A stretch of 11,155 nucleotides of DNA from a bacterium (GTDB taxonomy: Bacteria; Sysuimicrobiota; Sysuimicrobiia; Sysuimicrobiales; Kaftiobacteriaceae), in assembly GCA_044868695.1 (NCBI GenBank), contig JBIOWP010000158.1, forward strand, positions 1-11,155, read 5' to 3'. How positions within the stretch are numbered: position 1 is the first letter of the stretch; each line of letters opens with the position of its first letter. Of the stretch, positions 906 to 11,155 are shown piece by piece. A model generated the notes under the pieces. It ran no database searches. It was not told the origin of the DNA and saw only the letters and a program-made list of their open reading frames with translations. The translations under genes were made by a program, and so were the position numbers.

Positions 906-2423
906 ATGGAAGAAGCCGCAGTCATTGAACGCACGCTGCTCAGCGGATTCATCCGTGACCGATTCCTACTCGGCCGGGCGCTGGACTCGGGATTTCGTCC
1001 GGACCTGATGCCCCACGCGCTGGGTCGGACGCTGGCGAAGGTCCTCGCCGACCTCTACGAGCAGAAGGACATCCCGCTGGAGCCACTGACCGTGCGGGGG
1101 TTGATGGGCGAACGTGGGACGATGACGCCGGAGATGCGCCGCTTCCTGGACGCGGTGGAGGCGACCGAGGAGCCCGAGGCGGCCCAGGTCATGGCCTACG
1201 TGGATATCCTGAAAGCCCGGGCGTCCCGGCTGCGCCTGGTCGAGGTCAACACGGCGATCACGACCTACCTGGAGCAGGAGCGTAGCGAGGGGAAAGATCT
1301 CGTTGATTTCGTCGGCCAGATCATTCCGTCCCTCCTGGAGATCCAGCAGCAGCGGATGGCGCGCAACACGCCACCGGCGAACAAGATCGGCGGCGCCATT
1401 GTCCGCGAGATTCTCGAAGGTCATGCGGGGTCGATGCTGGGATACTCGCTGTCGCCGTTCGACCGGCTCAGCGACGCGCTGTCCGGGATGCGCCGCGGAT
1501 TCTACTACGGGCTCGCGGGCGCGCCGCGGCGCGGCAAGACCAACTTCGCGCTGGAACTCGCCGCCACGGTGGCCGCGCGGTACAAGATCCCCGTCCTCTA
1601 CTATTCGTGGGAGCAGACCAGCCGCGTGCTGTTCGCGCGGCTGCTGGCGAAAGAGTCGCTGATCAACCCCGCGGCGCTGCTGTCCGCGGATGCGAGCTCC
1701 CCGCAGATCCAGGGGCGCGTGAAAGAGGCCTGGGCGAAACTCGAGGGCAACCTGGGCGCGCTGTATCTGTTTGAGGGCGGCCGCACCGACACCATCGAGC
1801 GCATCAAGGCCCGCGCCCACAACTTGATGCACGCCTACCAGACCGACCAGTGCGTGGTGTTCATCGATTATCTGCAGCGCGTCCCGCTCGACGAACCCGT
1901 GCATGACGACAAGGCGCGCACCGACCTGATCTCTGCCAAACTGGCCGATCTGAGCCTGGAACTCAATACGCCGGTGTTCGCCATTTCGCCGTTGGACAAG
2001 GAAGGGTGCCGTCTCGATGAAAAGCCGGCGGAGGACATCTCGGAGTTTGCGCGGCCGACGATGCACCACTGCGTGGGGAGCGGCGACCTCGAGTACGACC
2101 TGGACGTGGCGCTGGTGATGTCCAAGGACTGGGTGGCGACGAAGAACCTCGAGGATCTGCTGAAGACGGAGGCGAAAGCGGGCCGGTCCGGGAGCGACTT
2201 CGTGCCGAAGATTGACGTCATGGACGTGCACCTCGACAAGAACCGCGACGCGCCCGACACGATCGCCAACACCATCCAGTACGCCTTTTTCGTGACGCTG
2301 AACAAGTTCGTGGAGATCGGCTACAAGACGAGCGATGAGTTCAGCAGCGGGTTTCGCGACTTCGCGAAGATGCAACAGATTCTCGAGAACCTGCGCGAGG
2401 GCGGGCTGCTCTCACCGGTCTAG
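906..2423 (+). CDS. Divergent DnaB-like (SF4) helicase/ATPase with a DnaB-type N-terminal domain, 505 aa
   Basis: Walker A GAPRRGKT (1518-1541), YSWEQ (catalytic Glu, cf. FSLEM), VFIDYLQ (H2), LSLELNTPVFAISPL (H3), SGDLEYDLD (H4) and DKNRD (Lys/Arg finger). The N-terminus has PLEPLTV...AYVDILKARA.RLRL, like DnaB PIDxVTV...YAxIVxEKAxLRxL. ATG 906 follows a G-rich SD-like GGGGTGG; TTG 888 is an alternative start. Confidence 0.88.
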   Translation: MEEAAVIERTLLSGFIRDRFLLGRALDSGFRPDLMPHALGRTLAKVLADLYEQKDIPLEPLTVRGLMGERGTMTPEMRRFLDAVEATEEPEAAQVMAYVDILKARASRLRLVEVNTAITTYLEQERSEGKDLVDFVGQIIPSLLEIQQQRMARNTPPANKIGGAIVREILEGHAGSMLGYSLSPFDRLSDALSGMRRGFYYGLAGAPRRGKTNFALELAATVAARYKIPVLYYSWEQTSRVLFARLLAKESLINPAALLSADASSPQIQGRVKEAWAKLEGNLGALYLFEGGRTDTIERIKARAHNLMHAYQTDQCVVFIDYLQRVPLDEPVHDDKARTDLISAKLADLSLELNTPVFAISPLDKEGCRLDEKPAEDISEFARPTMHHCVGSGDLEYDLDVALVMSKDWVATKNLEDLLKTEAKAGRSGSDFVPKIDVMDVHLDKNRDAPDTIANTIQYAFFVTLNKFVEIGYKTSDEFSSGFRDFAKMQQILENLREGGLLSPV

Positions 2424-2533: not shown

Positions 2534-2950
2534 ATGGCGCCACTGCTCACAGTTCACGCGCTGTTTCCGTTGATCGCTGCCGCCGCCGCCGGGAACGCCG
2601 TGCTGGCAGCGTGGGCATTTGTCGCCCATCGCCGCCACCAGCGTGTGCTGGGGCGCGCGTTCTGGGCGCTGCTGCTCCTCGTCCTCAGTGTGCTGGCCGT
2701 GCAGGCGGCGGCGGGAGTGGCACTGGCGCTCGCCGGCGCCCGGCCGAAGACGGGGCTGCATTTCCTGTACGCGGTCCTCGTCGCCTCCGGCGCCGTGGTG
2801 CAGTTCGGGCTCCGGCCGGGCGGCTTCCTCCGCGCGGCGGTGACGCGCGACGCCGGACAGTTCGCCGAGCCCCGGTACCTCGCACTCATCTGCTTGACCG
2901 AGATGGCACTCATCCTTCGGGCGTACATGACCGGTGTTGCTGGACGCTAG
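2534..2950 (+). CDS. Hypothetical integral membrane protein, 138 aa, about 4 TM segments
   Basis: Four hydrophobic stretches and GC3-rich codons. The stop abuts the SD sequence of the next gene. Confidence 0.8.
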   Translation: MAPLLTVHALFPLIAAAAAGNAVLAAWAFVAHRRHQRVLGRAFWALLLLVLSVLAVQAAAGVALALAGARPKTGLHFLYAVLVASGAVVQFGLRPGGFLRAAVTRDAGQFAEPRYLALICLTEMALILRAYMTGVAGR

Positions 2951-2961
2951 GGGGGATCGTG

Positions 2962-3444
2962 ATGACGTGCCGCGAGCGGCTGGAGCGCTACTTTCGCGAG
3001 AACGGGGTCCGGTACGATGTGCAGTCCCACCCCGAGGTCTATACGGCGCAGGAAGTCGCCGCCGTCGAACACATCCCGGGCCGCTTCATGGCCAAGGTGG
3101 TGCTGGCCGTGGTCGATGGGACGCTGACCGCCCTCGTGCTGGCCGCGCCCAACCGCATCGACATTCCCAAGTTGAAGGCCGCGCTGGGCGCCAGAGAGGT
3201 CCGGCTGGCACGTGAGCAGGAGTTTGCCGCATCCTTCCCCGACTGCGAAGTGGGGGCGATGCCGCCCTTCGGGAACCTGTATCAGGTGCCGGTGATCGTC
3301 GACCGGTCGATGATTGACGACCCCAAGATCGTGTTTAACGCCGGCACCCACCGCGAGACGATGGCGGTGGCCTACGAAGACTTCGAACGGCTTGTGGCTC
3401 CTCGGACCGTGGAGTTCTCCGCGACCATGTCCGCTGCGAGGTGA
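2962..3444 (+). CDS. YbaK/EbsC (INS superfamily) aminoacyl-tRNA deacylase-like protein, 160 aa
   Basis: H..VYTAQEVA, conserved Lys in MAKVV, FPDCEVGAMPPFG (GxxxP loop) and FNAGTH. SD AGGGGGA lies just upstream of GTG 2959/ATG 2962. This is the real part of track ORF 2335..3444. Confidence 0.92.
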   Translation: MTCRERLERYFRENGVRYDVQSHPEVYTAQEVAAVEHIPGRFMAKVVLAVVDGTLTALVLAAPNRIDIPKLKAALGAREVRLAREQEFAASFPDCEVGAMPPFGNLYQVPVIVDRSMIDDPKIVFNAGTHRETMAVAYEDFERLVAPRTVEFSATMSAAR

Positions 3445-3704
3445 TGACGATGACGTCGATGGGACGACGCATGCCGCCCGGCGCCCGCCGGCGCGGGTTT
3501 GTCATTCCGGTGCCGCACACCCGCTCGGGACAGAAGCATGTACAGGCGTATGTGCAGACCCTGCGCCCCAACGTCAGCGACATCGCCGCGACGCTTGCGG
3601 TGGACCGCGCCGCGCTGGCGGAACTGGACGATCCTGATGAAATCGGCGCCATCTACCTGGGGGCATTCCTGGACGATCTCGGCGGACGGATGGGCGCGGC
3701 CTAG
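3441..3704 (+). CDS. Hypothetical protein, up to 87 aa (several in-frame starts)
   Basis: GTGA overlap with the YbaK-family stop, GC3-rich codons and a protein-like acidic C-terminal half. Confidence 0.65.
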   Translation: MMTMTSMGRRMPPGARRRGFVIPVPHTRSGQKHVQAYVQTLRPNVSDIAATLAVDRAALAELDDPDEIGAIYLGAFLDDLGGRMGAA

Positions 3705-3709
3705 CCCGC

Positions 3710-4060
3710 ATGCCGGTCCGCTGGCCGCGACAGCGGCGCCTCATCGGGCAGCTCCGGGACATACTGCGCCGCGATTTCGGCTGCCAGGACGCCTGGGTGG
3801 TGGTATCGGGCGGCCGGTGCCGTCTGGAGGCGCGCGCCGGCGGCCGCCGCGTGATGCTGCTGGAAGATACCGAGGACGCGTTCTGGGGGCGGTTCTACGA
3901 GCCCGTGCTGCGCGAGCGTCTGCATCTGGGCGAACGCCTCGTGGAAACCGAAACCTGGCGCAAGCCCACCCCTGATCTGATCGCGGTCCTCACGCCGTTG
4001 TGTCGGGAGCGCCTGGGACCGCCGCGTCCGGCTGGCGCGGGGCCGGGACCCGGCGCATGA
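3710..4060 (+). CDS. Hypothetical protein, 116 aa
   Basis: ATG 5 nt after the previous stop, GC3-rich codons and protein-like composition. The 3' end overlaps the convergent MFS gene by 71 bp. Confidence 0.7.
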   Translation: MPVRWPRQRRLIGQLRDILRRDFGCQDAWVVVSGGRCRLEARAGGRRVMLLEDTEDAFWGRFYEPVLRERLHLGERLVETETWRKPTPDLIAVLTPLCRERLGPPRPAGAGPGPGA

Positions 4061-5222
4061 GCAGGAGGCCGGCCAGCTGCACGACCGCCGAGGCCGCGAA
4101 GATCCAGTGCACGCCGATGCGCGGGATCAGGACCCCGGCGAGAAACGGCCCGGTCGTGGCGCGGATGCCGACCGCGGTGTTGAACAGCGTGACGTAGTGC
4201 AAGACCTGGCCCGTCGGCGCGTAATGCAGCGCGGCCGCCAGCCAGCCCAGATCGATGCCCGCTGACGTCAATCCGTCCGTCACGCCCGCGAACTGCACCA
4301 CCCACGCGTTTGGAGCCAGCAGGTAGACCAGGGGGGTGAGGATGCCGATGCTAAAGACGACTTTCATCGTGTGCGTCGCCGTCCGCCGGTCGATCATCTT
4401 GCCCCAGGAGTAGAACGAAAGCATCCACATGGTCGAGGCCACGGCGCCGAGGAGCCCGACTTGGAAGTTGGTGGCGCGGAGCTCATCCACCAGCAAGATC
4501 GGCACTGCCGGACTCATGAGCCATCCCCCGAAGCCGTACACAAAGAACGCCAGCAGGAACCGGCGGTAGGCCGCGTCGGCCCACAGGAGGCGCCAGGTCA
4601 CGGCGGGATTGATGTGCTCCGCCACCTCGATCGTCTCCGGCGTCCGCATCCGGCTGAATACGAGCGAGCTGCCCATGCCCAACACGCCTGCGGCCGCAAA
4701 GACCCACTGGAACGGGATGAGCTGCATCAGCTGGCCGCCGACCAGCGATCCGACCACCCAGACGGTGGCCATGCCGACCTTCATCAGCGCCATGATCCGG
4801 CCGCGGACATCATCTGGATAGACGGCGCGCATCACCTGTGCGTAGCCGAGGGTGTTGATCGAACTCACGGCATGGTACAGCACGACGAGGAACACGTACT
4901 GGGCGGGGGACCGGATGAAGGGCATGAGCAGGAACATCGCCCGGCCGACCAGTGCCGGCCAGACGACCAGCCGCACCGGGTGCACAGGCCGGACCGCGTT
5001 GACGATCCAGAATGACAGCAGGAAGACGATCGCGGGCGCGGCCACGAGCAACGATACCTGCAGCGGCGTGGCGCCCAGCCGGCGGCCCATCACCGGAATG
5101 AACGGAATGGTGAGGCCGCCGAACGCGCCGTACAGCAGCGCCGCGAGGAAATCGGTTTGCGCGTTGGCGCGCGTCATCGGAGGGATCGGGACGCGCAGCC
5201 AGCGACGGAGGAAGGTCATCAC
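3990..5222 (-). CDS. MFS transporter, about 410 aa
   Basis: About 12 hydrophobic helices in two halves, YPDDVRGRIM, and WGKMIDRR (motif-A-like in the C-terminal half). Start is GTG 5222 or ATG 5219. Confidence 0.9.
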   Translation of the reverse strand: MMTFLRRWLRVPIPPMTRANAQTDFLAALLYGAFGGLTIPFIPVMGRRLGATPLQVSLLVAAPAIVFLLSFWIVNAVRPVHPVRLVVWPALVGRAMFLLMPFIRSPAQYVFLVVLYHAVSSINTLGYAQVMRAVYPDDVRGRIMALMKVGMATVWVVGSLVGGQLMQLIPFQWVFAAAGVLGMGSSLVFSRMRTPETIEVAEHINPAVTWRLLWADAAYRRFLLAFFVYGFGGWLMSPAVPILLVDELRATNFQVGLLGAVASTMWMLSFYSWGKMIDRRTATHTMKVVFSIGILTPLVYLLAPNAWVVQFAGVTDGLTSAGIDLGWLAAALHYAPTGQVLHYVTLFNTAVGIRATTGPFLAGVLIPRIGVHWIFAASAVVQLAGLLLMRRVPAPRQPDAAVPGAPDTTA

Positions 5223-5367: not shown

Positions 5368-6099
5368 ATGCGGTACGCGATCATCTCCGACGTTCACGCC
5401 AACCTGGAGGCGCTGGAGGCCGTGCTGGCGGACATCTCCGCCCGCCGGCCCGACGCGCTCCTGTGCCTGGGCGATTTCGTCGGATACGGGCCCGATCCGG
5501 TGGCCTGCGTCGACCGCCTGCGGTCACACCTGGCCGGGGCCGTCGTCGGCAACCATGATCTGGCGGCGCTCGAGCGGATTGATATCTCCACGTTCAACGC
5601 GCTCGCGCAGGCGGCCATCCTCTGGACGCGGGAGCAGCTGACCGACTCCGTCCGCCGTTACCTCGCCGGCCTGCCGCAGAAGATGACGCCGGACGGGTTC
5701 CTGGGCGTTCACGGAAGCCTGCGCGATCCCGTGGAAGAGTATATCTTCGACCCGCTCACCGCCCGCGCCAGTTTCGACGCCGCGCCGTTTCACTTCTGCG
5801 TGGTCGGCCACACGCACGTGCCGGCCGTGTACGTGGAGGCCGGCGAGGCGGTAACGGGGGAGCCGCTGCTGGCGGATCAGATCCTGTCGCTGCGGCCGGA
5901 CCGGCGCTACATCATCAACGTCGGCAGCGTCGGGCAGCCCCGGGATGGGGATCCCCGTGCGGGATTTGTCTGGCTGGATACGGAGCAGCTCAGCGCCACG
6001 CTCATCCGCCTGGACTATCCGATTGCGCAGACTCAGGAGAAGATGGCGGCCGCGGGCCTGCCCGCCATGCTGGCGGAGCGCCTGGCATTCGGACGCTGA
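5368..6099 (+). CDS. Calcineurin-like metallophosphoesterase (YfcE/MJ0912-like), 243 aa
   Basis: SDVHAN, LGDFVGYG, GNHD, HGS, GHTH and NVGSVGQPRDG motifs. The true start is ATG 5368, inside track ORF 4852..6099. Confidence 0.93.
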   Translation: MRYAIISDVHANLEALEAVLADISARRPDALLCLGDFVGYGPDPVACVDRLRSHLAGAVVGNHDLAALERIDISTFNALAQAAILWTREQLTDSVRRYLAGLPQKMTPDGFLGVHGSLRDPVEEYIFDPLTARASFDAAPFHFCVVGHTHVPAVYVEAGEAVTGEPLLADQILSLRPDRRYIINVGSVGQPRDGDPRAGFVWLDTEQLSATLIRLDYPIAQTQEKMAAAGLPAMLAERLAFGR

Positions 6100-6132: not shown

Positions 6133-8169
6133 GTGAGCACACGCAAGGTCTCGATCGAAGATCTGCTCGCGCTACGGTGGATCAGCGATCCTCAGCTGAG
6201 TCCCGACGGCGCGCGGGCCGTCTATGTCCAGACGGAGATCGACCGCGTGGCCGATACGTACCGCTCGCATCTGTGGATGGTGTCTCTGTCGGGAGGCGAC
6301 CCCCGTCCGTACACGGCGGGCGAGCATCGTGATTCGCAGCCGCGCTGGTCCCCCGACGGCCGCTGGATCACGTTCCTCTCCGACCGGGGGGCGGCGGCGA
6401 AGGCCGAGCCCGGCGCCAAGCGCCCGAAACAACTGTATCTGATCCCCGCAGACGGCGGGGAGGCGCGGCTGCTGGTGACCTCCGCCTACAGCCCGTCGGA
6501 CGTCGCGTGGTCTCCCGACGGCGAGACGATCGCCTTCGTGGGAAAGGCGCCGGTCGAGGAACCCAAGAGCGATGTCAAAGTCATTACGCGCGTCCGCTAC
6601 AAGTTTGACGGGGAGGGATTTTGGGACGGCCGCTACAAGCAGATTTTCTCCCTCAAGATTGCCAGCGGGTCCCCGCAGCAGATTACCGGCGGCGATTTCG
6701 ACCACGGCGATCCCGCCTGGTCGCCGGACGGCCGGGCACTGGCCTTCGTGGCCAACCGGACGGCGGACGCCGACTTCACCAACGTCACCGATGTGTGGGT
6801 CATCTCCGCATCCGGCGGCGAGCCCACGCGGTTGACGAAGTCCATCGGACCGTGCGCGACCCCCACCTGGTCCCCCGACGGCAGGCTGGTCGCCTATTAC
6901 GGGCATGACAACGCCTGCAGGGGAGCGACGAATACCAATGCCTGGATCGTTCCGGTGGACGGCGGTGATCCCGCGAATCTCACCGCGGCGTACGACCGGT
7001 CCCTCGAGCATCACGTCATCACCGACATGCGGGCCCATGCAAAGATCGGCGGACCGGTCTGGGCGCCGGACGGCGGCAGCCTGGTGGTGCTGATCGCCGA
7101 TGGCGCAACGAATCAGGTCGGCGCCGTGAACCTGCGCGCGGGCGGCGTGACCGTGCTCACGTCGGGCCGGCGGGAGGTCTATGGCGTATCTGTCGCGCGA
7201 GCGGGGCAGACCGCTGTGATCGCGGCGTCTGATCCATTCACTCCGGGTGACCTGTGGGTGGTGCCGCTGGATGGCCGCGGGAACGAGCGGCGCCTGTCGG
7301 AGGCGAACGCCTCCCTGCTCGCCGGCGTGGCGCTGAGCCAGCCGGAGCCGTTCACCTATGAGGGCGCAGACGGCTGGCCGATTGAGGGATGGGTCATGCG
7401 CCCCATCGAGTACCGTGACGGCCAGAGGTATCCGACCGTGCTCCAGATCCACGGCGGGCCCCATGGCGCATACGGCGAGGCGTTCTTTCACGAGTTCCAG
7501 CTGCTGGCCGCCGAGGGATTCGCCGTCGTGTACACCAACCCGCGCGGCAGCCAGGGGTATGGCCAGCGCTTCACGTCGGCCACGCACCACGACTGGGGCG
7601 GCAAGGACTACGAGGACATCATGCGGGGGCTCGATGCGGCCATCGCCCGCTGTTCCTTCATTGATCCCGACCGGCTGGGCGTGGCCGGCGGCAGCTACGG
7701 GGGGTTCATGACGAACTGGGTCATCGGGCACACCCCCCGCTTCAAGGCGGCGGTGACGATGCGGTCCATCTCCAACCATCTCAGCCAGTGGGGCATGAGC
7801 GACCTGGCGTTCATGAAGGGATTCTGGGAGTTTCCGGGCGACCCGTGGGAGGCGCCGACGTGGTACTGGGAGCACTCCCCGCTGGCCTATGTCGAGCAGA
7901 TCACGGCGCCGCTACTGATCCTCCACAGCGAACAGGATCTCCGCTGTCCGGTTGGCGAGGCGGAGCAGCTGTTCGCGGCGCTGGTCAAGCTGGGGCGCGA
8001 CGTCGTGTTTGTGCGGTTTCCCAACGAGAGCCACGACCTCTCGCGCAGCGGGCAGCCCAGCCACCGGGTCGAGCGGCTGCGCTGGATCGTCAAGTGGTTT
8101 GCCGACCACCTGCGGCGGTCCGCGCCCGCCCCGCCCCGCGAGCCTGCGGTCGCCGGCGGCACGGAGTGA
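6133..8169 (+). CDS. S9-family prolyl oligopeptidase / acylaminoacyl peptidase, 678 aa
   Basis: Repeated WSPDG (PD40-like propeller) motifs, IHGGPH, NPRGSQGYG, nucleophile GGSYGG, Asp in EQDLRC and His in NESHDL. SD GAGGTG at 6122-6127. No signal peptide seen. Confidence 0.95.
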   Translation: MSTRKVSIEDLLALRWISDPQLSPDGARAVYVQTEIDRVADTYRSHLWMVSLSGGDPRPYTAGEHRDSQPRWSPDGRWITFLSDRGAAAKAEPGAKRPKQLYLIPADGGEARLLVTSAYSPSDVAWSPDGETIAFVGKAPVEEPKSDVKVITRVRYKFDGEGFWDGRYKQIFSLKIASGSPQQITGGDFDHGDPAWSPDGRALAFVANRTADADFTNVTDVWVISASGGEPTRLTKSIGPCATPTWSPDGRLVAYYGHDNACRGATNTNAWIVPVDGGDPANLTAAYDRSLEHHVITDMRAHAKIGGPVWAPDGGSLVVLIADGATNQVGAVNLRAGGVTVLTSGRREVYGVSVARAGQTAVIAASDPFTPGDLWVVPLDGRGNERRLSEANASLLAGVALSQPEPFTYEGADGWPIEGWVMRPIEYRDGQRYPTVLQIHGGPHGAYGEAFFHEFQLLAAEGFAVVYTNPRGSQGYGQRFTSATHHDWGGKDYEDIMRGLDAAIARCSFIDPDRLGVAGGSYGGFMTNWVIGHTPRFKAAVTMRSISNHLSQWGMSDLAFMKGFWEFPGDPWEAPTWYWEHSPLAYVEQITAPLLILHSEQDLRCPVGEAEQLFAALVKLGRDVVFVRFPNESHDLSRSGQPSHRVERLRWIVKWFADHLRRSAPAPPREPAVAGGTE

Positions 8170-8768
8170 CACGCAAGCGCGCGGCGCCGCGGCGCCGCCC
8201 TCCGGACGGTGCTCCGGCGCCCCGGATCTACACGCGCACCGGCGACCGTGGAGACACGGGTCTCATCGGCGGGCGGCGCATTCCCAAAGACCAGGTGCGG
8301 GTGGAAGCGTACGGCGCGGTCGACGAGTTGAACGCGCACCTCGGCGTCGTCCGAGCGGAGGCCGCCGACGCGGAGACGGCCGACCTGCTAGACGAACTCC
8401 AGCACCGGCTGTTCGATCTCGGCGCGGAGCTGGCCACACCCGCGGATGCCGCGGGCGCCGCGTCACCGATCGGCGACGAGGCCGTCGCGCGTCTTGAGCG
8501 CGCGATCGATCGTCTGCAGGAGCGGCTGCCGCCGCTGCGCGAGTTCATTCTGCCGGGCGGCACCCCGCTGGCCGCGTCGCTTCACGTGGCCCGCACGGTC
8601 TGCCGGCGGGCGGAACGCCGCCTGGTCACGCTCGCCCGCGAGGAACCGGTGCGCCCGGCACTGCTGCGCTACCTCAACCGGCTCTCGGACCTGCTCTTCG
8701 TGCTGGCGCGCGCCGCCAATGCGCGCGCGGGCCGGCCAGACGTCATCTGGAAGAAGGGGTACGAGTGA
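8166..8768 (+). CDS. pduO: PduO-type ATP:cob(I)alamin adenosyltransferase, 200 aa
   Basis: IYTRTGDRGDTGL, EAYGAVDELNA, LFDLGAELA, FILPGG, ARTVCRRAER and YLNRLSDLLF. GTG 8166 overlaps the peptidase stop (GTGA). Confidence 0.93.
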   Translation: MTRKRAAPRRRPPDGAPAPRIYTRTGDRGDTGLIGGRRIPKDQVRVEAYGAVDELNAHLGVVRAEAADAETADLLDELQHRLFDLGAELATPADAAGAASPIGDEAVARLERAIDRLQERLPPLREFILPGGTPLAASLHVARTVCRRAERRLVTLAREEPVRPALLRYLNRLSDLLFVLARAANARAGRPDVIWKKGYE

Positions 8769-8772
8769 GTCT

Positions 8773-8976
8773 ATGCGCCAATCATCAGACGGCCCGCGCG
8801 AGCGTGACATCCTCACGGTTGAGCAGGCCGCGGACCTCCTGCAGATCCACAAGGTGACGGTCTACAAATACATCAGGTCCGGGATGCTCCCCGCGGCCAG
8901 GCTCGGCAAAGTCTATCGCATCTACCGCCGCGACGTCGAGGCGCTGTTGCAAGATCACCGCCATCGCGCGCGATGA
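8773..8976 (+). CDS. Excisionase-family (HTH_17/MerR-like) DNA-binding protein, 67 aa
   Basis: ILTVEQAADLLQIHKVTVYKYIRSGMLPAARLGKVYRI fits the LTvxEAAxxLxVxxxTVYxxIxxGxLPAxRxGxxxRI pattern. ATG is 4 nt after the pduO stop. Confidence 0.9.
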   Translation: MRQSSDGPRERDILTVEQAADLLQIHKVTVYKYIRSGMLPAARLGKVYRIYRRDVEALLQDHRHRAR

Positions 8977-10253
8977 TCGCGTCGCTGGCGCGGCTCTCCA
9001 CGTTTTCCGCCCTCCGGCACCGCAACTACCGGCTGTTCTGGACCGGGGCGCTGGTCTCCCTGATGGGGACGTGGATGCAGAGCACGGCCCAGAGCTACCT
9101 GGTGTGGGAGCTCACGCGCTCCGCGCTGGCCACCAGCCTCACCACGCTGTTCTTCTCGCTGCCTTCGACGGTGCTCTCCCTGGTCGGGGGCGTGGTGGCT
9201 GACCGCGTCGACCGGCGCCGCCTGATCCTCGTTACCCAGACGGTCTTCATGCTGCAGGCCGTCGCCCTCACGGCGCTGGCGTTCACCGGGCAGATCAAGA
9301 TCTGGGAAATCTACCTGCTCGCGCTGGTCAACGGGACCGTCATGGCGTTCGACTCGCCCGGCCGCCAGTCGATGATCCCGTCGCTGGTGCCGCGCGAAGA
9401 CCTCAGCAACGCGATCGCGCTCAACTCCACGGTGTTCAACGCCGGCCGTGTCATCGGGCCGCCGCTGGCGGGGTTCGTCTACGCGGCCGCCGGGCCGGCC
9501 TGGTGCTTCGCGTTCAACGCCGTCTCGTTCCTGGCCATTCTCTACCCGCTGTCGATCATCCGTCCTCTGCCGGTCGCCGCGGGCGTGGTGCGCACGCACC
9601 CCTGGGATGACCTGCGCGAGGGGCTGGGCTATGCGCGCGGGCATCCGGTCGTGCGCGCGCTGCTGCTGCTAGTGGGACTCGTGGGAACCCTGGCGTTCAC
9701 GTACGTCGTGCTGATGCCCGTGGTCGCGTCTACTGTGCTCGGCGGCGGGCCGGCGGAAAACGGCTATCTGCTCGGCTCGGCCGGCGTGGGCGCGACGCTG
9801 GGCGCGCTCGGCGTCGCCACGCTGCGTCCGAGCCGGCCGGGGCGGCTGATCGTCGGGTTTGGGTACGCGGCGTCGCTGGCCCTGGTGGCGTTCATGTTCT
9901 CGCGCCACCTGGCGCTGTCGATGGTGCTGACGGCGGTCGTCGCGGGATGCGTGATGGCGCTGCTGGCCACCTGCAACGCGACGATCCAGGGGTACGTGCC
10001 TGACGCCCTGCGCGGGCGCATCATGAGCATTTACTCGCTGGCGTTGATCGGCAGTGGCCCGCTGACCGCCGTCATCGCCGGCACGTTGGGGAACAGCCTG
10101 GGCGCCGCGGCGGCGATTGGCCTCAGCGGCTTTGCGCTCGGACTCTCCGTGGGCCTCGTCGCGGCGCGGAACCGGCTGGTCGTGGAACTCGAAATGCGCC
10201 GCGTGGGGCAGACGGCGGAGGGAGCCTCAGTTCCGGTCGGCACCAAGTCGTAG
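8973..10253 (+). CDS. MFS transporter (MFS_3 / transmembrane secretion effector-like), 426 aa
   Basis: ALRHRNYRLFW, GTWMQ, GGVVADRVDRRR (motif A), NAIALNS..FNAGRVIGP and VPDALRGRIMS. ATGA overlap with the HTH gene stop. Confidence 0.93.
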   Translation: MIASLARLSTFSALRHRNYRLFWTGALVSLMGTWMQSTAQSYLVWELTRSALATSLTTLFFSLPSTVLSLVGGVVADRVDRRRLILVTQTVFMLQAVALTALAFTGQIKIWEIYLLALVNGTVMAFDSPGRQSMIPSLVPREDLSNAIALNSTVFNAGRVIGPPLAGFVYAAAGPAWCFAFNAVSFLAILYPLSIIRPLPVAAGVVRTHPWDDLREGLGYARGHPVVRALLLLVGLVGTLAFTYVVLMPVVASTVLGGGPAENGYLLGSAGVGATLGALGVATLRPSRPGRLIVGFGYAASLALVAFMFSRHLALSMVLTAVVAGCVMALLATCNATIQGYVPDALRGRIMSIYSLALIGSGPLTAVIAGTLGNSLGAAAAIGLSGFALGLSVGLVAARNRLVVELEMRRVGQTAEGASVPVGTKS

Positions 10254-10260
10254 GCAGTCG

Positions 10261-10608
10261 TCAGAACCTGAGCAGGACGACGGCAGTCAGTACCGTCCCA
10301 ACGACGGCGGCGGCGTAACATGCGACGGCCACGGCTCGCCGGCCTCCCTTCACTCCCAGGTCGATGAGCGTGAAGCGAAAGCGATGCGCCCAGTGGAACA
10401 GCGGCAGAGAGATCAGGGCGAACAGGTAGAGCTTCGTAAGCGGATGTGAGATCAGAGTAAAGAGGCGTTGATAATCAAACGCACCCCTCGCCCACCCCAG
10501 CGGCGCAACGATCCCGGTGAGGAGAATCTGCACCGGCACCAGGAACGCGGCGATGACACCGCCTGCGGCGAACAGTGACCACCAGAAAGGTTCGGTTGAT
10601 TTGACCAT
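10261..10608 (-). CDS. frdD: Fumarate reductase membrane anchor subunit D, 115 aa
   Basis: STEPFWWSLFAAGG (cf. E. coli SDEPVFWGLFGAGG), LPLFHWAHR, 3 TM segments, and position after frdC. Confidence 0.92.
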   Translation of the reverse strand: MVKSTEPFWWSLFAAGGVIAAFLVPVQILLTGIVAPLGWARGAFDYQRLFTLISHPLTKLYLFALISLPLFHWAHRFRFTLIDLGVKGGRRAVAVACYAAAVVGTVLTAVVLLRF

Positions 10609-10611
10609 CGC

Positions 10612-10995
10612 TTAGCCCCGCATGACCAGCCAGGCGACCAGAGCGGAGATCACGATCCAGGCGGCGTAGTTGACGCCCGCGATTACTGTTGCCGGAATGC
10701 GTTGCTCTCCACGCCGCACGACGATCACCTTGGGCGTGATGTTGATCCACGTGATCGCGTGGTAAAGCGCGGCGGCCAGCACCACGAGATGAAAGACCAG
10801 CATCCCGGGCGCCCGCAGCAGCCCAAGGTACTCCTCATATGCCTCCCGCCCGAGGCGCAGTTCGTACAACAGGAGCAGGAGCAAGATGGCGTACGCAGCG
10901 TTGAAGACGCTCGTCAGCTCCCGTACCATAAACAGGAAGTAGGCGCGGTTGCGCAGCCACCACGCTGCGGGCATGGGACGGTGATACGGGCTCAT
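10612..10995 (-). CDS. frdC: Fumarate reductase membrane anchor subunit C, 127 aa
   Basis: [11 protein letters not shown]...FMVRELTSV (cf. PYVRPMTSTWW...YMLREGTAV) and LYHAITW. ATG 10995 overlaps the frdB stop (ATGA). Confidence 0.92.
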
Positions 10996-11153
10996 CGCTT
11001 CCCCCAGGGGAGGAGAACGTCTTTGTACCATTTGAGGGTGGCGGAGACCTTCGCCTGTTGGATGGCCGCGGCCGGATCGACGTGAGCCGGGCATACGGTC
11101 GTGCACTCGCCGACCAGGGTGCAGTCCCAGATGCCATCCTCGCTCATTAACGC
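10992..11153 (-). CDS. frdB: Fumarate reductase iron-sulfur subunit, C-terminal fragment (truncated by the window edge; not in the ORF track)
   Basis: Manual translation gives [53 protein letters not shown]. It has the C-x5-C-x3-CP motif and [12 protein letters not shown] as in E. coli FrdB. Confidence 0.93.
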
Positions 11154-11155
11154 CA

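Follow-up and report, generated by a model that had tools for sequence, protein, structure and literature searches.

Introduction

DnaB, a ring ATPase of the SF4 superfamily, is the textbook example of a single-purpose replication motor. In its described forms (family model TIGR00665; structures 7t22, 4esv and 9dls), an N-terminal domain, a helical hairpin and a linker helix are followed by a RecA-type C-terminal domain, which carries the Walker A and B motifs, the catalytic Glu and a K-x-R finger acting in trans. Each subunit contacts two phosphates of single-stranded DNA (ssDNA), for which PMC6391071 names the side chains of R403, E404 and G406 in E. coli DnaB and the equivalent R381, E382 and G384 in the G. 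stearothermophilus protein. Here we describe a DnaB-like paralog encoded at positions 906–2423 (+) of a stretch of DNA of 11,155 nt (contig JBIOWP010000158.1, assembly GCA_044868695.1) from a bacterium of the phylum Sysuimicrobiota; this whole stretch is called the window below. The paralog shares the domain plan and the catalytic set of replicative DnaB, whereas it is only ~20–25% identical to it, lacks the Gln of motif H3, has the R and E of the RESG sequence replaced, carries an extra helix and a C-terminal helix, and is adjoined by neither rplI nor dnaG.

Other described systems come close to the paralog as well. The archaeal RecA/KaiC-like protein FlaH (ArlH) partners the PilB-family ATPase FlaI, as reported in PMC5019145. 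Like FlaH, the paralog would be a RecA-superfamily ring protein encoded together with, and perhaps acting on, a type-IV-filament assembly ATPase, a functional analogy drawn from operon context, whereas its only Pfam matches are DnaB_C and AAA_25. FlaH itself is a single-domain protein without the N-terminal tier of DnaB. The recombination helicase RadA/Sms, which carries a KNRFG motif, is a non-replicative DnaB-type ring ATPase with K-N-R at the interface, and the paralog reads DKNRDAP; according to Pfam, however, the paralog has neither a zinc finger nor a Lon-like C-terminal domain (a 457-aa frame with a weak P-loop match on contig C105 of the same genome may be RadA). Finally, the phage DnaB-like helicases (phrog_19, TIGR03600; G40P, 3bgw) are diverged from cellular DnaB to a comparable extent, whereas the paralog is chromosomal, vertically inherited and has no phage genes around it. 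Literature searches gave no description of this paralog family, and a term search of PMC11604079 had no matches to pili, DnaB or helicase.

The comparisons reported here suggest that the paralog belongs to a subfamily of SF4/DnaB ATPases that is as yet undescribed and has diverged in function, in which the full DnaB architecture and invariant ATPase and trans-finger residues are combined with rewritten H3 and H4 motifs, in genomes that also encode a canonical DnaB. We give a probability of roughly 0.45 to the reading that the paralog is a conserved DnaB-type ring ATPase which is not the fork helicase and has been retasked, with the type IV pilus motor as its likeliest client. Within this reading, the choice of the pilus motor, and especially of a PilB bearing a TPR domain, as the client is the more speculative part.

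Architecture and Motifs of the Paralog

The open reading frame (ORF) at 906–2423 (+) is uninterrupted and encodes 505 aa (P0001), with an ATG start codon at 906 and a TAG stop codon at 2421–2423; a TTG at 888, the alternative upstream start, receives no backing from the N-termini of homologs. The GC content per codon position (0.66/0.41/0.87) and the pairwise divergence per codon position among 8 close relatives (0.15/0.10/0.44) are those of a frame that is clearly coding and, by the divergence, under strong purifying selection. A 9-bp inverted repeat (CGTCCCGTC ... GACGGGACG; 851–881, +), found by eye ~25 nt upstream of the start codon, has no T-run downstream.

Translation bears out the original prediction, made from the letters of the DNA, that Walker A (AGAPRRGKT, 1515–1541), the catalytic Glu (E236 of YSWEQT, 1602–1619), the DYLQ of Walker B (1866–1877) and the K-x-R finger (K445 and the Arg finger R447 of DKNRDAP, 2235–2255) are intact, all on the (+) strand like the features that follow. 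It was likewise right in reading SPLDK, with a Pro codon at 1989–1991, in place of the canonical SQLNR, and RPTMHHCVGSG in the H4 loop. The altered H3 spans 1986–2000, or extends to 2024 with the family-specific KEGCRLDEK, and the altered H4 DNA-binding loop (RPTMHHCVGSGDLEYDLD) spans 2052–2105. Two further features that it had pointed to are also present, a charged segment (DWVATKNLEDLLKTEAKAG, 2127–2183), predicted to form a helix (residues 409–425) before the finger strand, and a family-conserved C-terminal extension (2313–2420) with a predicted helix at residues 485–498. The closest solved structure by sequence is that of E. coli DnaB (E 2e-15). In the HMMER alignment of the two proteins, 'rptmhhcvgsgdleydld' of the paralog lies opposite 'rpvnsdlresgsieqdad' of DnaB, and VGSG occupies the position of R403-E404-S405-G406.

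The match to Pfam DnaB_C (PF03796) is well over the gathering score (86.2 bits vs. a cut-off of 27) and that to AAA_25 is sub-threshold, while the KaiC-type ATPase model PF06745 is not among the Pfam matches at E ≤ 0.01. Against the replicative DnaB equivalog of NCBIfam (TIGR00665), which aligns to residues 7–469, the paralog scores 113.1 bits vs. a cut-off of 385.25, and it falls far under the cut-off of each of the 15 DnaB-type NCBIfam models that it matches.

An AlphaFold2 model built from a 62-row alignment (mean predicted local distance difference test score, pLDDT, 87.8; predicted template modelling score, pTM, 0.72) consists of a helical globular N-domain (residues about 1–86), a helical hairpin (92–151) and a linker helix (158–170), which together make up a DnaB-type N-terminal tier encoded at 906–1415 (+), followed by a RecA-type domain (180–475). 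When the model was searched against the PDB with Foldseek, full-length DnaBs ranked first (TM 0.71–0.80), led by the V. cholerae protein (9dls_C; TMq 0.71, TMt 0.80, 470 columns) and followed by those of E. coli (7t22) and G. stearothermophilus (4esv). The retention of a DnaB-like N-domain, also claimed in the original prediction, is thus supported by the predicted fold, because this aligns over ~470 columns with full-length DnaB, N-terminal tier included, and by the extent of the TIGR00665 alignment; it is not supported by the Pfam model of the DnaB N-domain (PF00772), which has no match in the paralog at E ≤ 0.01. A protein of this kind would be likely to assemble into a DnaB-type ring and to hydrolyse ATP at the subunit interfaces.

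A Family with a Rewritten DNA-Binding Loop

A word-indexed search scored 8000 candidates, of which 559 passed E ≤ 0.001; the 120 best matches listed are 48–100% identical to the query, and nearly all of them are full-length. When 1.84 billion representatives were searched with a profile, full-length members scored 445–760 bits, the next proteins ~145 and ordinary DnaBs 100–135, which marks a sharp family boundary. A species scan, with each prokaryote species represented by one genome, gave 240 relatives. The best 80 of these, kept for the comparison of loci, come from Candidatus Sysuimicrobiota (CSP1-3; often labelled 'Armatimonadota' or 'Bacillati bacterium ANGP1'), Caldisericota (Caldisericum, Cryosericum), Acidobacteriota (Acidiferrales, Sulfotelmatobacter), Desulfomonile, Syntrophales, WOR-3 and one Limnocylindrales metagenome-assembled genome, and the family spans at least six phyla.

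Phylogenies inferred with FastTree (115 rows) and with an IQ-TREE mixture model (48 rows) agree. The family and the canonical DnaBs lie on opposite sides of a branch with a support of 100, and each phylum-level group forms a single clade (97–100). Within Sysuimicrobiota (97), the family of the window's genome, here called f1 (100), sits on a long stem (about 0.43–0.46), apart from a clade of three other families, f2, f4 and f5 (99). Judged from these trees and from the loci, the paralog family is chromosomal and vertically inherited. Two deviating forms are found near its base: proteins with a zinc ribbon and a P/Q-rich linker (P0131 and P0132; 728 and 793 aa), and relatives of ~400 aa without the N-domain (P0153, P0156, P0157, P0181). 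In several of the latter, the Walker A, catalytic Glu and Arg-finger positions are degenerate while the altered loop is kept, and these look like pseudo-ATPases. A basic K-x-S-[IL]-K-L tail is common to the ~400-aa relatives and the zinc-ribbon forms. No fused forms were found at E ≤ 1e-30 among proteins of 885–2525 aa, which is weak evidence.

Residues were counted in 77 non-identical family members and 27 canonical-type representatives. K211, E236, D321, Y322, Q324, K445 and R447 are present in 77/77 and 27/27, respectively; in the family, the Walker A residue G210 is also invariant (77/77), as are the family-specific R208 and R209 (77/77). By contrast, the position of the H3 Gln (362) is occupied in the family by S (39), P (32), A (5) or G (1) and never by Q, vs. 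Q (16) or S (11) in the canonical type, and the H3 Arg is replaced by Lys in 75 of the 77. The position of E. coli R403 (390) is T (36), V (29), M (8) or K (2), hence basic in 2/77, where the canonical type has R (16) or K (11), and that of E404 (391) is G in all 77 members, acidic in none, as opposed to E (25) or D (2). Only the position of G406 (393) is the same on both sides, with G in 77/77 and 27/27. Since the R403 and E404 positions are replaced family-wide and G406 is kept, the family has a fixed loss of two of the three ssDNA contacts listed in PMC6391071, with all of the ATPase chemistry kept. The ring would then burn ATP without tracking ssDNA as DnaB does, and for that reason we infer that the paralog is not a fork helicase.

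The same picture is obtained at shorter distance. In an alignment of 20 homologs (47–92% identical to the query), S361, L363, D364, K365, G367, C368, R383–H388 and G391–D394 are invariant together with G210, K211, E236, D321–Q324, K445 and R447. The deviant H3 and H4 residues are therefore fixed across a wide family and are not private drift, and none of these close homologs has the normal SQL/DLRESG motifs. The suggestion that the HHC of the pore loop may bind metal is not supported as a feature of the family, in which H387 is found in 48/77, H388 in 44/77, C389 in 47/77 and C368 in 68/77.

Coexistence with a Canonical DnaB

The window's genome (G000; 2.59 Mb in 162 contigs, 95% complete) has the paralog in single copy. 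A second DnaB_C match in this genome, of 298 bits, lies on contig C72 in a frame of 799 aa with an insert after model position 33. It is a dnaB with a typical N-terminus (PPQNLEAEQGVLG), which keeps SQLSR and LRESG (in RRPLLSHLRESGELEQ) and is interrupted by an intein directly after the Gly-Lys of Walker A, with junctions between AARPAMGK and CLKYD at one end and between VHN and TTFSLN at the other. The presence of this canonical dnaB in the same genome, along with the family-wide motif changes, agrees with the expectation that the paralog is unlikely to be the housekeeping helicase; the paralog is not the only dnaB of the genome. The suggestion in the original prediction that it may be a repurposed ring ATPase would fit these findings.

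In GTDB, the phylum of the window comprises 94 genomes in one order and seven families. A strong match to the paralog (E ≤ 2e-73) is found in 72 of them, the window's included, and most of these carriers have an additional weak match (23–30% identity) in a frame of ~790–1300 aa, which is an intein-bearing canonical DnaB. Across the phylum, the lengths of the canonical frames (about 780 to 1345 aa) suggest one or two inteins per DnaB. In five genomes from other lineages (Caldisericum, Cryosericum, Acidoferrales, Desulfomonile and the lineage of locus L086, described below), TIGR00665 gave 296–573 bits to a DnaB, over the cut-off in 4/5, vs. 116–139 bits to the paralog. A canonical DnaB thus accompanies the paralog in every genome tested.

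Genomic Context and the Type IV Pilus

The lead to the pilus comes from gene neighbourhoods. The ±8 kb around the paralog were taken from 18 genomes of the phylum and compared with the window, with gene calls based on GC content at the third codon position (GC3). In 15/15 Sysuimicrobiota loci from outside f1, the paralog is flanked by genes of the T2SSE family, between a TPR-MshEN-PilB gene and PilB/PilT/PilC genes. According to Pfam scans of 4 of these 15 loci, a PilB of ~770–820 aa with TPR, MshEN and T2SSE domains is encoded upstream, usually divergently, and a Roadblock/LC7 protein and a sigma-70-family factor farther upstream; downstream are an optional DUF6812 protein with a 569-aa PilB, then a PilT-like ATPase of 385 aa, PilC, pilins and a PMT_2 glycosyltransferase. 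Among the 80 loci of the species scan, 14 have strong PilB/PilT/PilC matches, all of them from Sysuimicrobiota outside f1 and some duplicating the 15 loci.

Partial independent support for the same lead comes from a distant lineage of 34–47% G+C. In its locus L086, an efp-accB-accC string has a paralog of ~585 aa (7788–9542) between its last two genes, with a 749-aa TPR and Roadblock protein four genes upstream and an MshEN and SPOR protein three genes downstream. Loci L075 and L090 have the same MshEN and Roadblock matches within a few genes of the paralog, and in the search for PilB, PilT and PilC all three loci had a weak MshEN-type match only.

In the window's genome, contig C115 encodes PilT, a sigma factor, a Roadblock protein, a TPR-PilB of 823 aa, which exceeds the cut-off of TIGR02538 with 693 bits, and a second PilB truncated by the end of the contig; only ~120 nt separate the two PilB genes at the place where sister lineages carry the paralog. 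A C-terminal PilB fragment, PilT and PilC are encoded on contig C145. No DUF6812 gene, which in some sister loci separates the paralog from pilB, turned up in the genome (95% complete). Among contigs C115, C89 and C145, two end inside PilB at T2SSE model positions 3–262, and the third starts with the C-terminal part that matches them; the assembly is apparently interrupted by PilB paralogs that are nearly identical.

A profile of the TPR part of the large PilB, whose matches are bimodal (E ≤ 3e-38 or E ≥ 5e-9), divides the 94 genomes of the phylum into 72 with both paralog and TPR-PilB, 2 with TPR-PilB only (G046, 93% complete; G068, 86% complete), none with the paralog only and 20 with neither, 10 of them with a completeness of 90% or more. 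Within f1, 20/22 genomes have kept both genes even though these are not linked there. In four paralog-less genomes (G059, G060, G063 and G092) the cluster is a simpler PilT-PilT-sigma-PilB(-PilB)-PilC, and matches to TPR, Roadblock and the paralog are absent. The presence of PilC was also considered as a tracker of the paralog and rejected, PilC being found in 88/94 genomes.

Taken together, the loci and the co-occurrence are consistent with a ring retasked away from the replication fork, whose part beside the TPR-bearing PilB would be that of an accessory or regulatory ATPase, in a pairing like that of the archaeal FlaH with FlaI. In the window's lineage, the gene would do so from outside the pilus operon, the TPR-PilB being still encoded in the genome. 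A more definite version of this proposal, which we regard as less likely than not, is that the type IV pilus has recruited a hexameric motor derived from DnaB, either as a counterpart of FlaH-FlaI that docks on the TPR-PilB or as the missing cytoplasmic motor pulling transforming ssDNA in behind the pilus, and that the job is kept where the gene lies outside the operon.

Several points weigh against the pilus as client. Pfam finds no pilus genes adjoining the paralog in the window, and the 3 other f1 loci examined have none of those described above either. No PilB, PilT or PilC gene is within reach in 63/80 loci of the species scan, including all those of Caldisericota, Acidobacteriota and Desulfobacterota, in which MshEN and Roadblock matches near the paralog are absent as well. 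The linkage is missing in four other phyla and, since it is also absent in f1, the core job of the paralog may be more general than pili. Pili do not need the paralog, because PilC is found in 6/6 genomes of the paralog-less genus g21, as in the phylum at large. The co-occurrence is confounded, because outside f1 the genes adjoin and a single deletion or assembly gap removes both, and its counts are weakened by the fact that the genomes are kin and not independent. In the five genomes from other lineages, PilB, PilT and PilC are all present and, with no T2SSE frame longer than 629 aa, a TPR-PilB fusion is lacking. The loss of ssDNA tracking is itself open to two objections: the H3 Gln is replaced by Ser in 11/27 canonical-type representatives and is thus not universal in working SF4 helicases, and K365, R369 and K373, which follow H3, might make up a replacement loop for DNA binding.

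Outside Sysuimicrobiota, the neighbourhoods are also conserved but of several other, unrelated types. The order in Caldisericales is mfd, pth, a gene for a GerM-domain protein, amidohydrolase, paralog, iPGM, a gene for a CinA-like protein and NUDIX, with the GerM and amidohydrolase genes upstream in 14/14 loci. In the Acidiferrales type, Mrp/complex-I-like genes precede the paralog, and a metallophosphoesterase, enolase and two dynamins follow it; in the Desulfomonile type, pyrB, pyrC, DJ-1, hypA and DUF6125 are followed by the paralog. A linkage to a YfcE-type metallophosphoesterase, downstream of the paralog in f1 and in 6/8 Acidobacteriota-type loci, was considered and dropped, the proteins being only 30% identical (80 bits).

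Alternative Explanations

A remodelled nucleic-acid translocase is a serious rival, unlikely on balance as we judge it to be. The paralog would be an additional translocase or helicase for DNA or RNA, with a specialised role in recombination, repair, restart or the uptake of transforming ssDNA, and would bind nucleic acid with a pore remodelled around the K365/R369/K373 loop and the Gly-rich H4 loop instead of with the canonical R-E-S-G contacts. In favour of this reading are the complete DnaB architecture of the predicted fold, with N-terminal tier and linker helix, the invariant ATPase and finger residues, the third DNA contact (G393, 77/77) and the invariant or near-invariant basic residues after H3. 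Pilus operons can serve DNA uptake. The replication neighbourhood of the Cryosericum-type loci (L096, L101, L102, L107, L115, L118, L119, L121 and L124) also fits: dciA, recF, dnaN and dnaA are divergent from the paralog, with dnaA in 9/9 and GerM in 8/9, and the gene would there sit beside the presumed origin region. In 4 of these loci a small ECF-type sigma factor gene comes after the paralog. Against this, the R and E contacts are gone family-wide, no linkage to recombination or repair genes is conserved across phyla, and the relatives without N-terminal tier keep the altered loop although their Walker A, Glu and finger positions are degenerate; this surface may therefore serve a purpose other than that of a motor.

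The kept N-terminal tier and hairpin, the coexistence with canonical DnaB in the genomes tested and the dnaA locus near the origin in Cryosericum could instead indicate a regulator or decoy of replication, forming mixed rings with DnaB or holding back DnaG or the loader DciA through its N-terminal tier. We consider this quite improbable: the N-domain is too diverged to be matched by PF00772, no linkage to dnaG, dnaB or dciA is seen in loci other than those of Cryosericum, and the invariant hydrolysis residues favour an active motor over a passive decoy.

Still less probable is that the paralog has remained a replicative helicase, either a conditional alternative at the fork or the main one in some lineages. 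The intact ATPase core would allow it, but a far better DnaB is encoded in the window's genome, in 5/5 genomes from other phyla and, as the weak second match, in most carriers within the phylum; moreover, the paralog scores far under every curated DnaB cut-off and its DNA contacts are replaced.

That the gene is what is left of a phage or plasmid replication module, once integrated, is scarcely credible. It is brought to mind by the score of the paralog on phrog_19 (112 bits), equal to that on the cellular DnaB models, and by the ESM-Atlas feature clusters nearest to it, all of those returned being phage DnaB-like proteins. However, phage, plasmid, mobile and defence genes are absent from all of the neighbourhoods examined, PADLOC matches the paralog with 0 defence families, the gene is single-copy in the window's genome, its phylogeny follows the phyla, and its scores on the models of phage DnaB (TIGR03600, 85.6 bits vs. 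a cut-off of 498.65) and of the DnaB of the SPI-7 island (NF040583, 68.9 vs. 655) are remote from membership. Lastly, a decaying or privately drifting, functionless duplicate of dnaB is refuted by the conservation of homologs and the divergence per codon position, the deviations being invariant in 20/20 close homologs and holding across the 77 members under strong purifying selection.

Other Genes of the Window

The window has a G+C content of 66–70%. In agreement with the original prediction, no rplI, dnaG, or phage or plasmid replication genes are among its Pfam matches. Upstream of the paralog are a tRNA-Arg(CCG) gene (271–346, –; ARAGORN, and Rfam with 69 bits) and an ORF for a small conserved protein (392–757, +). 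This ORF is found by tblastn in 11 f1 loci at 44–63% identity and is confined to f1. It has an in-frame indel of 5 aa and a divergence per codon position of 0.35/0.30/0.55, and a confident all-beta AlphaFold2 model (pLDDT 84) is obtained for its product, which has neither a Pfam match nor a fold match in the PDB at E ≤ 0.001; the ORF is apparently a genuine gene for a protein specific to this lineage. An Arg-rich 'ORF' at 256–657 overlaps the tRNA gene and is probably spurious.

Downstream of the paralog, a hydrophobic ORF of 138 aa (2534–2947, +), of membrane type, has its C-terminal half kept in 13 f1 loci (56–78% identity), to which it is confined; its product, with no Pfam match, is probably a small membrane protein. 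There follow genes for a YbaK-type tRNA-editing protein (about 2950–3444, +), two small ORFs (3441–3704 and 3710–4060, +), an MFS transporter (3990–5222, –), a YfcE-like metallophosphoesterase (about 5368–6099, +), an S9 peptidase (6133–8169, +), a PduO-type adenosyltransferase (about 8226–8768, +), an HTH_17 protein (within 8446–8976, +) and an MFS_3 transporter (8973–10253, +), and then frdD and frdC (10261–11154, –). The HTH_17 gene, of the MerR/excisionase type, ends at the start of the MFS_3 gene; the weak match of its product to PADLOC 'mad1' (E 8e-9) is probably merely the HTH motif.

Significance of the Family

A conserved paralog of DnaB that keeps the chemistry of the motor and has its DNA-gripping loop rewritten would add the SF4 rings to the RecA/KaiC and AAA+ rings as a group in which retasking has taken place. 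The family is also a natural experiment on the DnaB residues which couple ATP turnover to DNA. If the link to the pilus is true, the paralog would be a new component of one of the best-studied bacterial machines. What the window contributes is that the pilus linkage is lineage-specific, and that the core function of the family may be broader.

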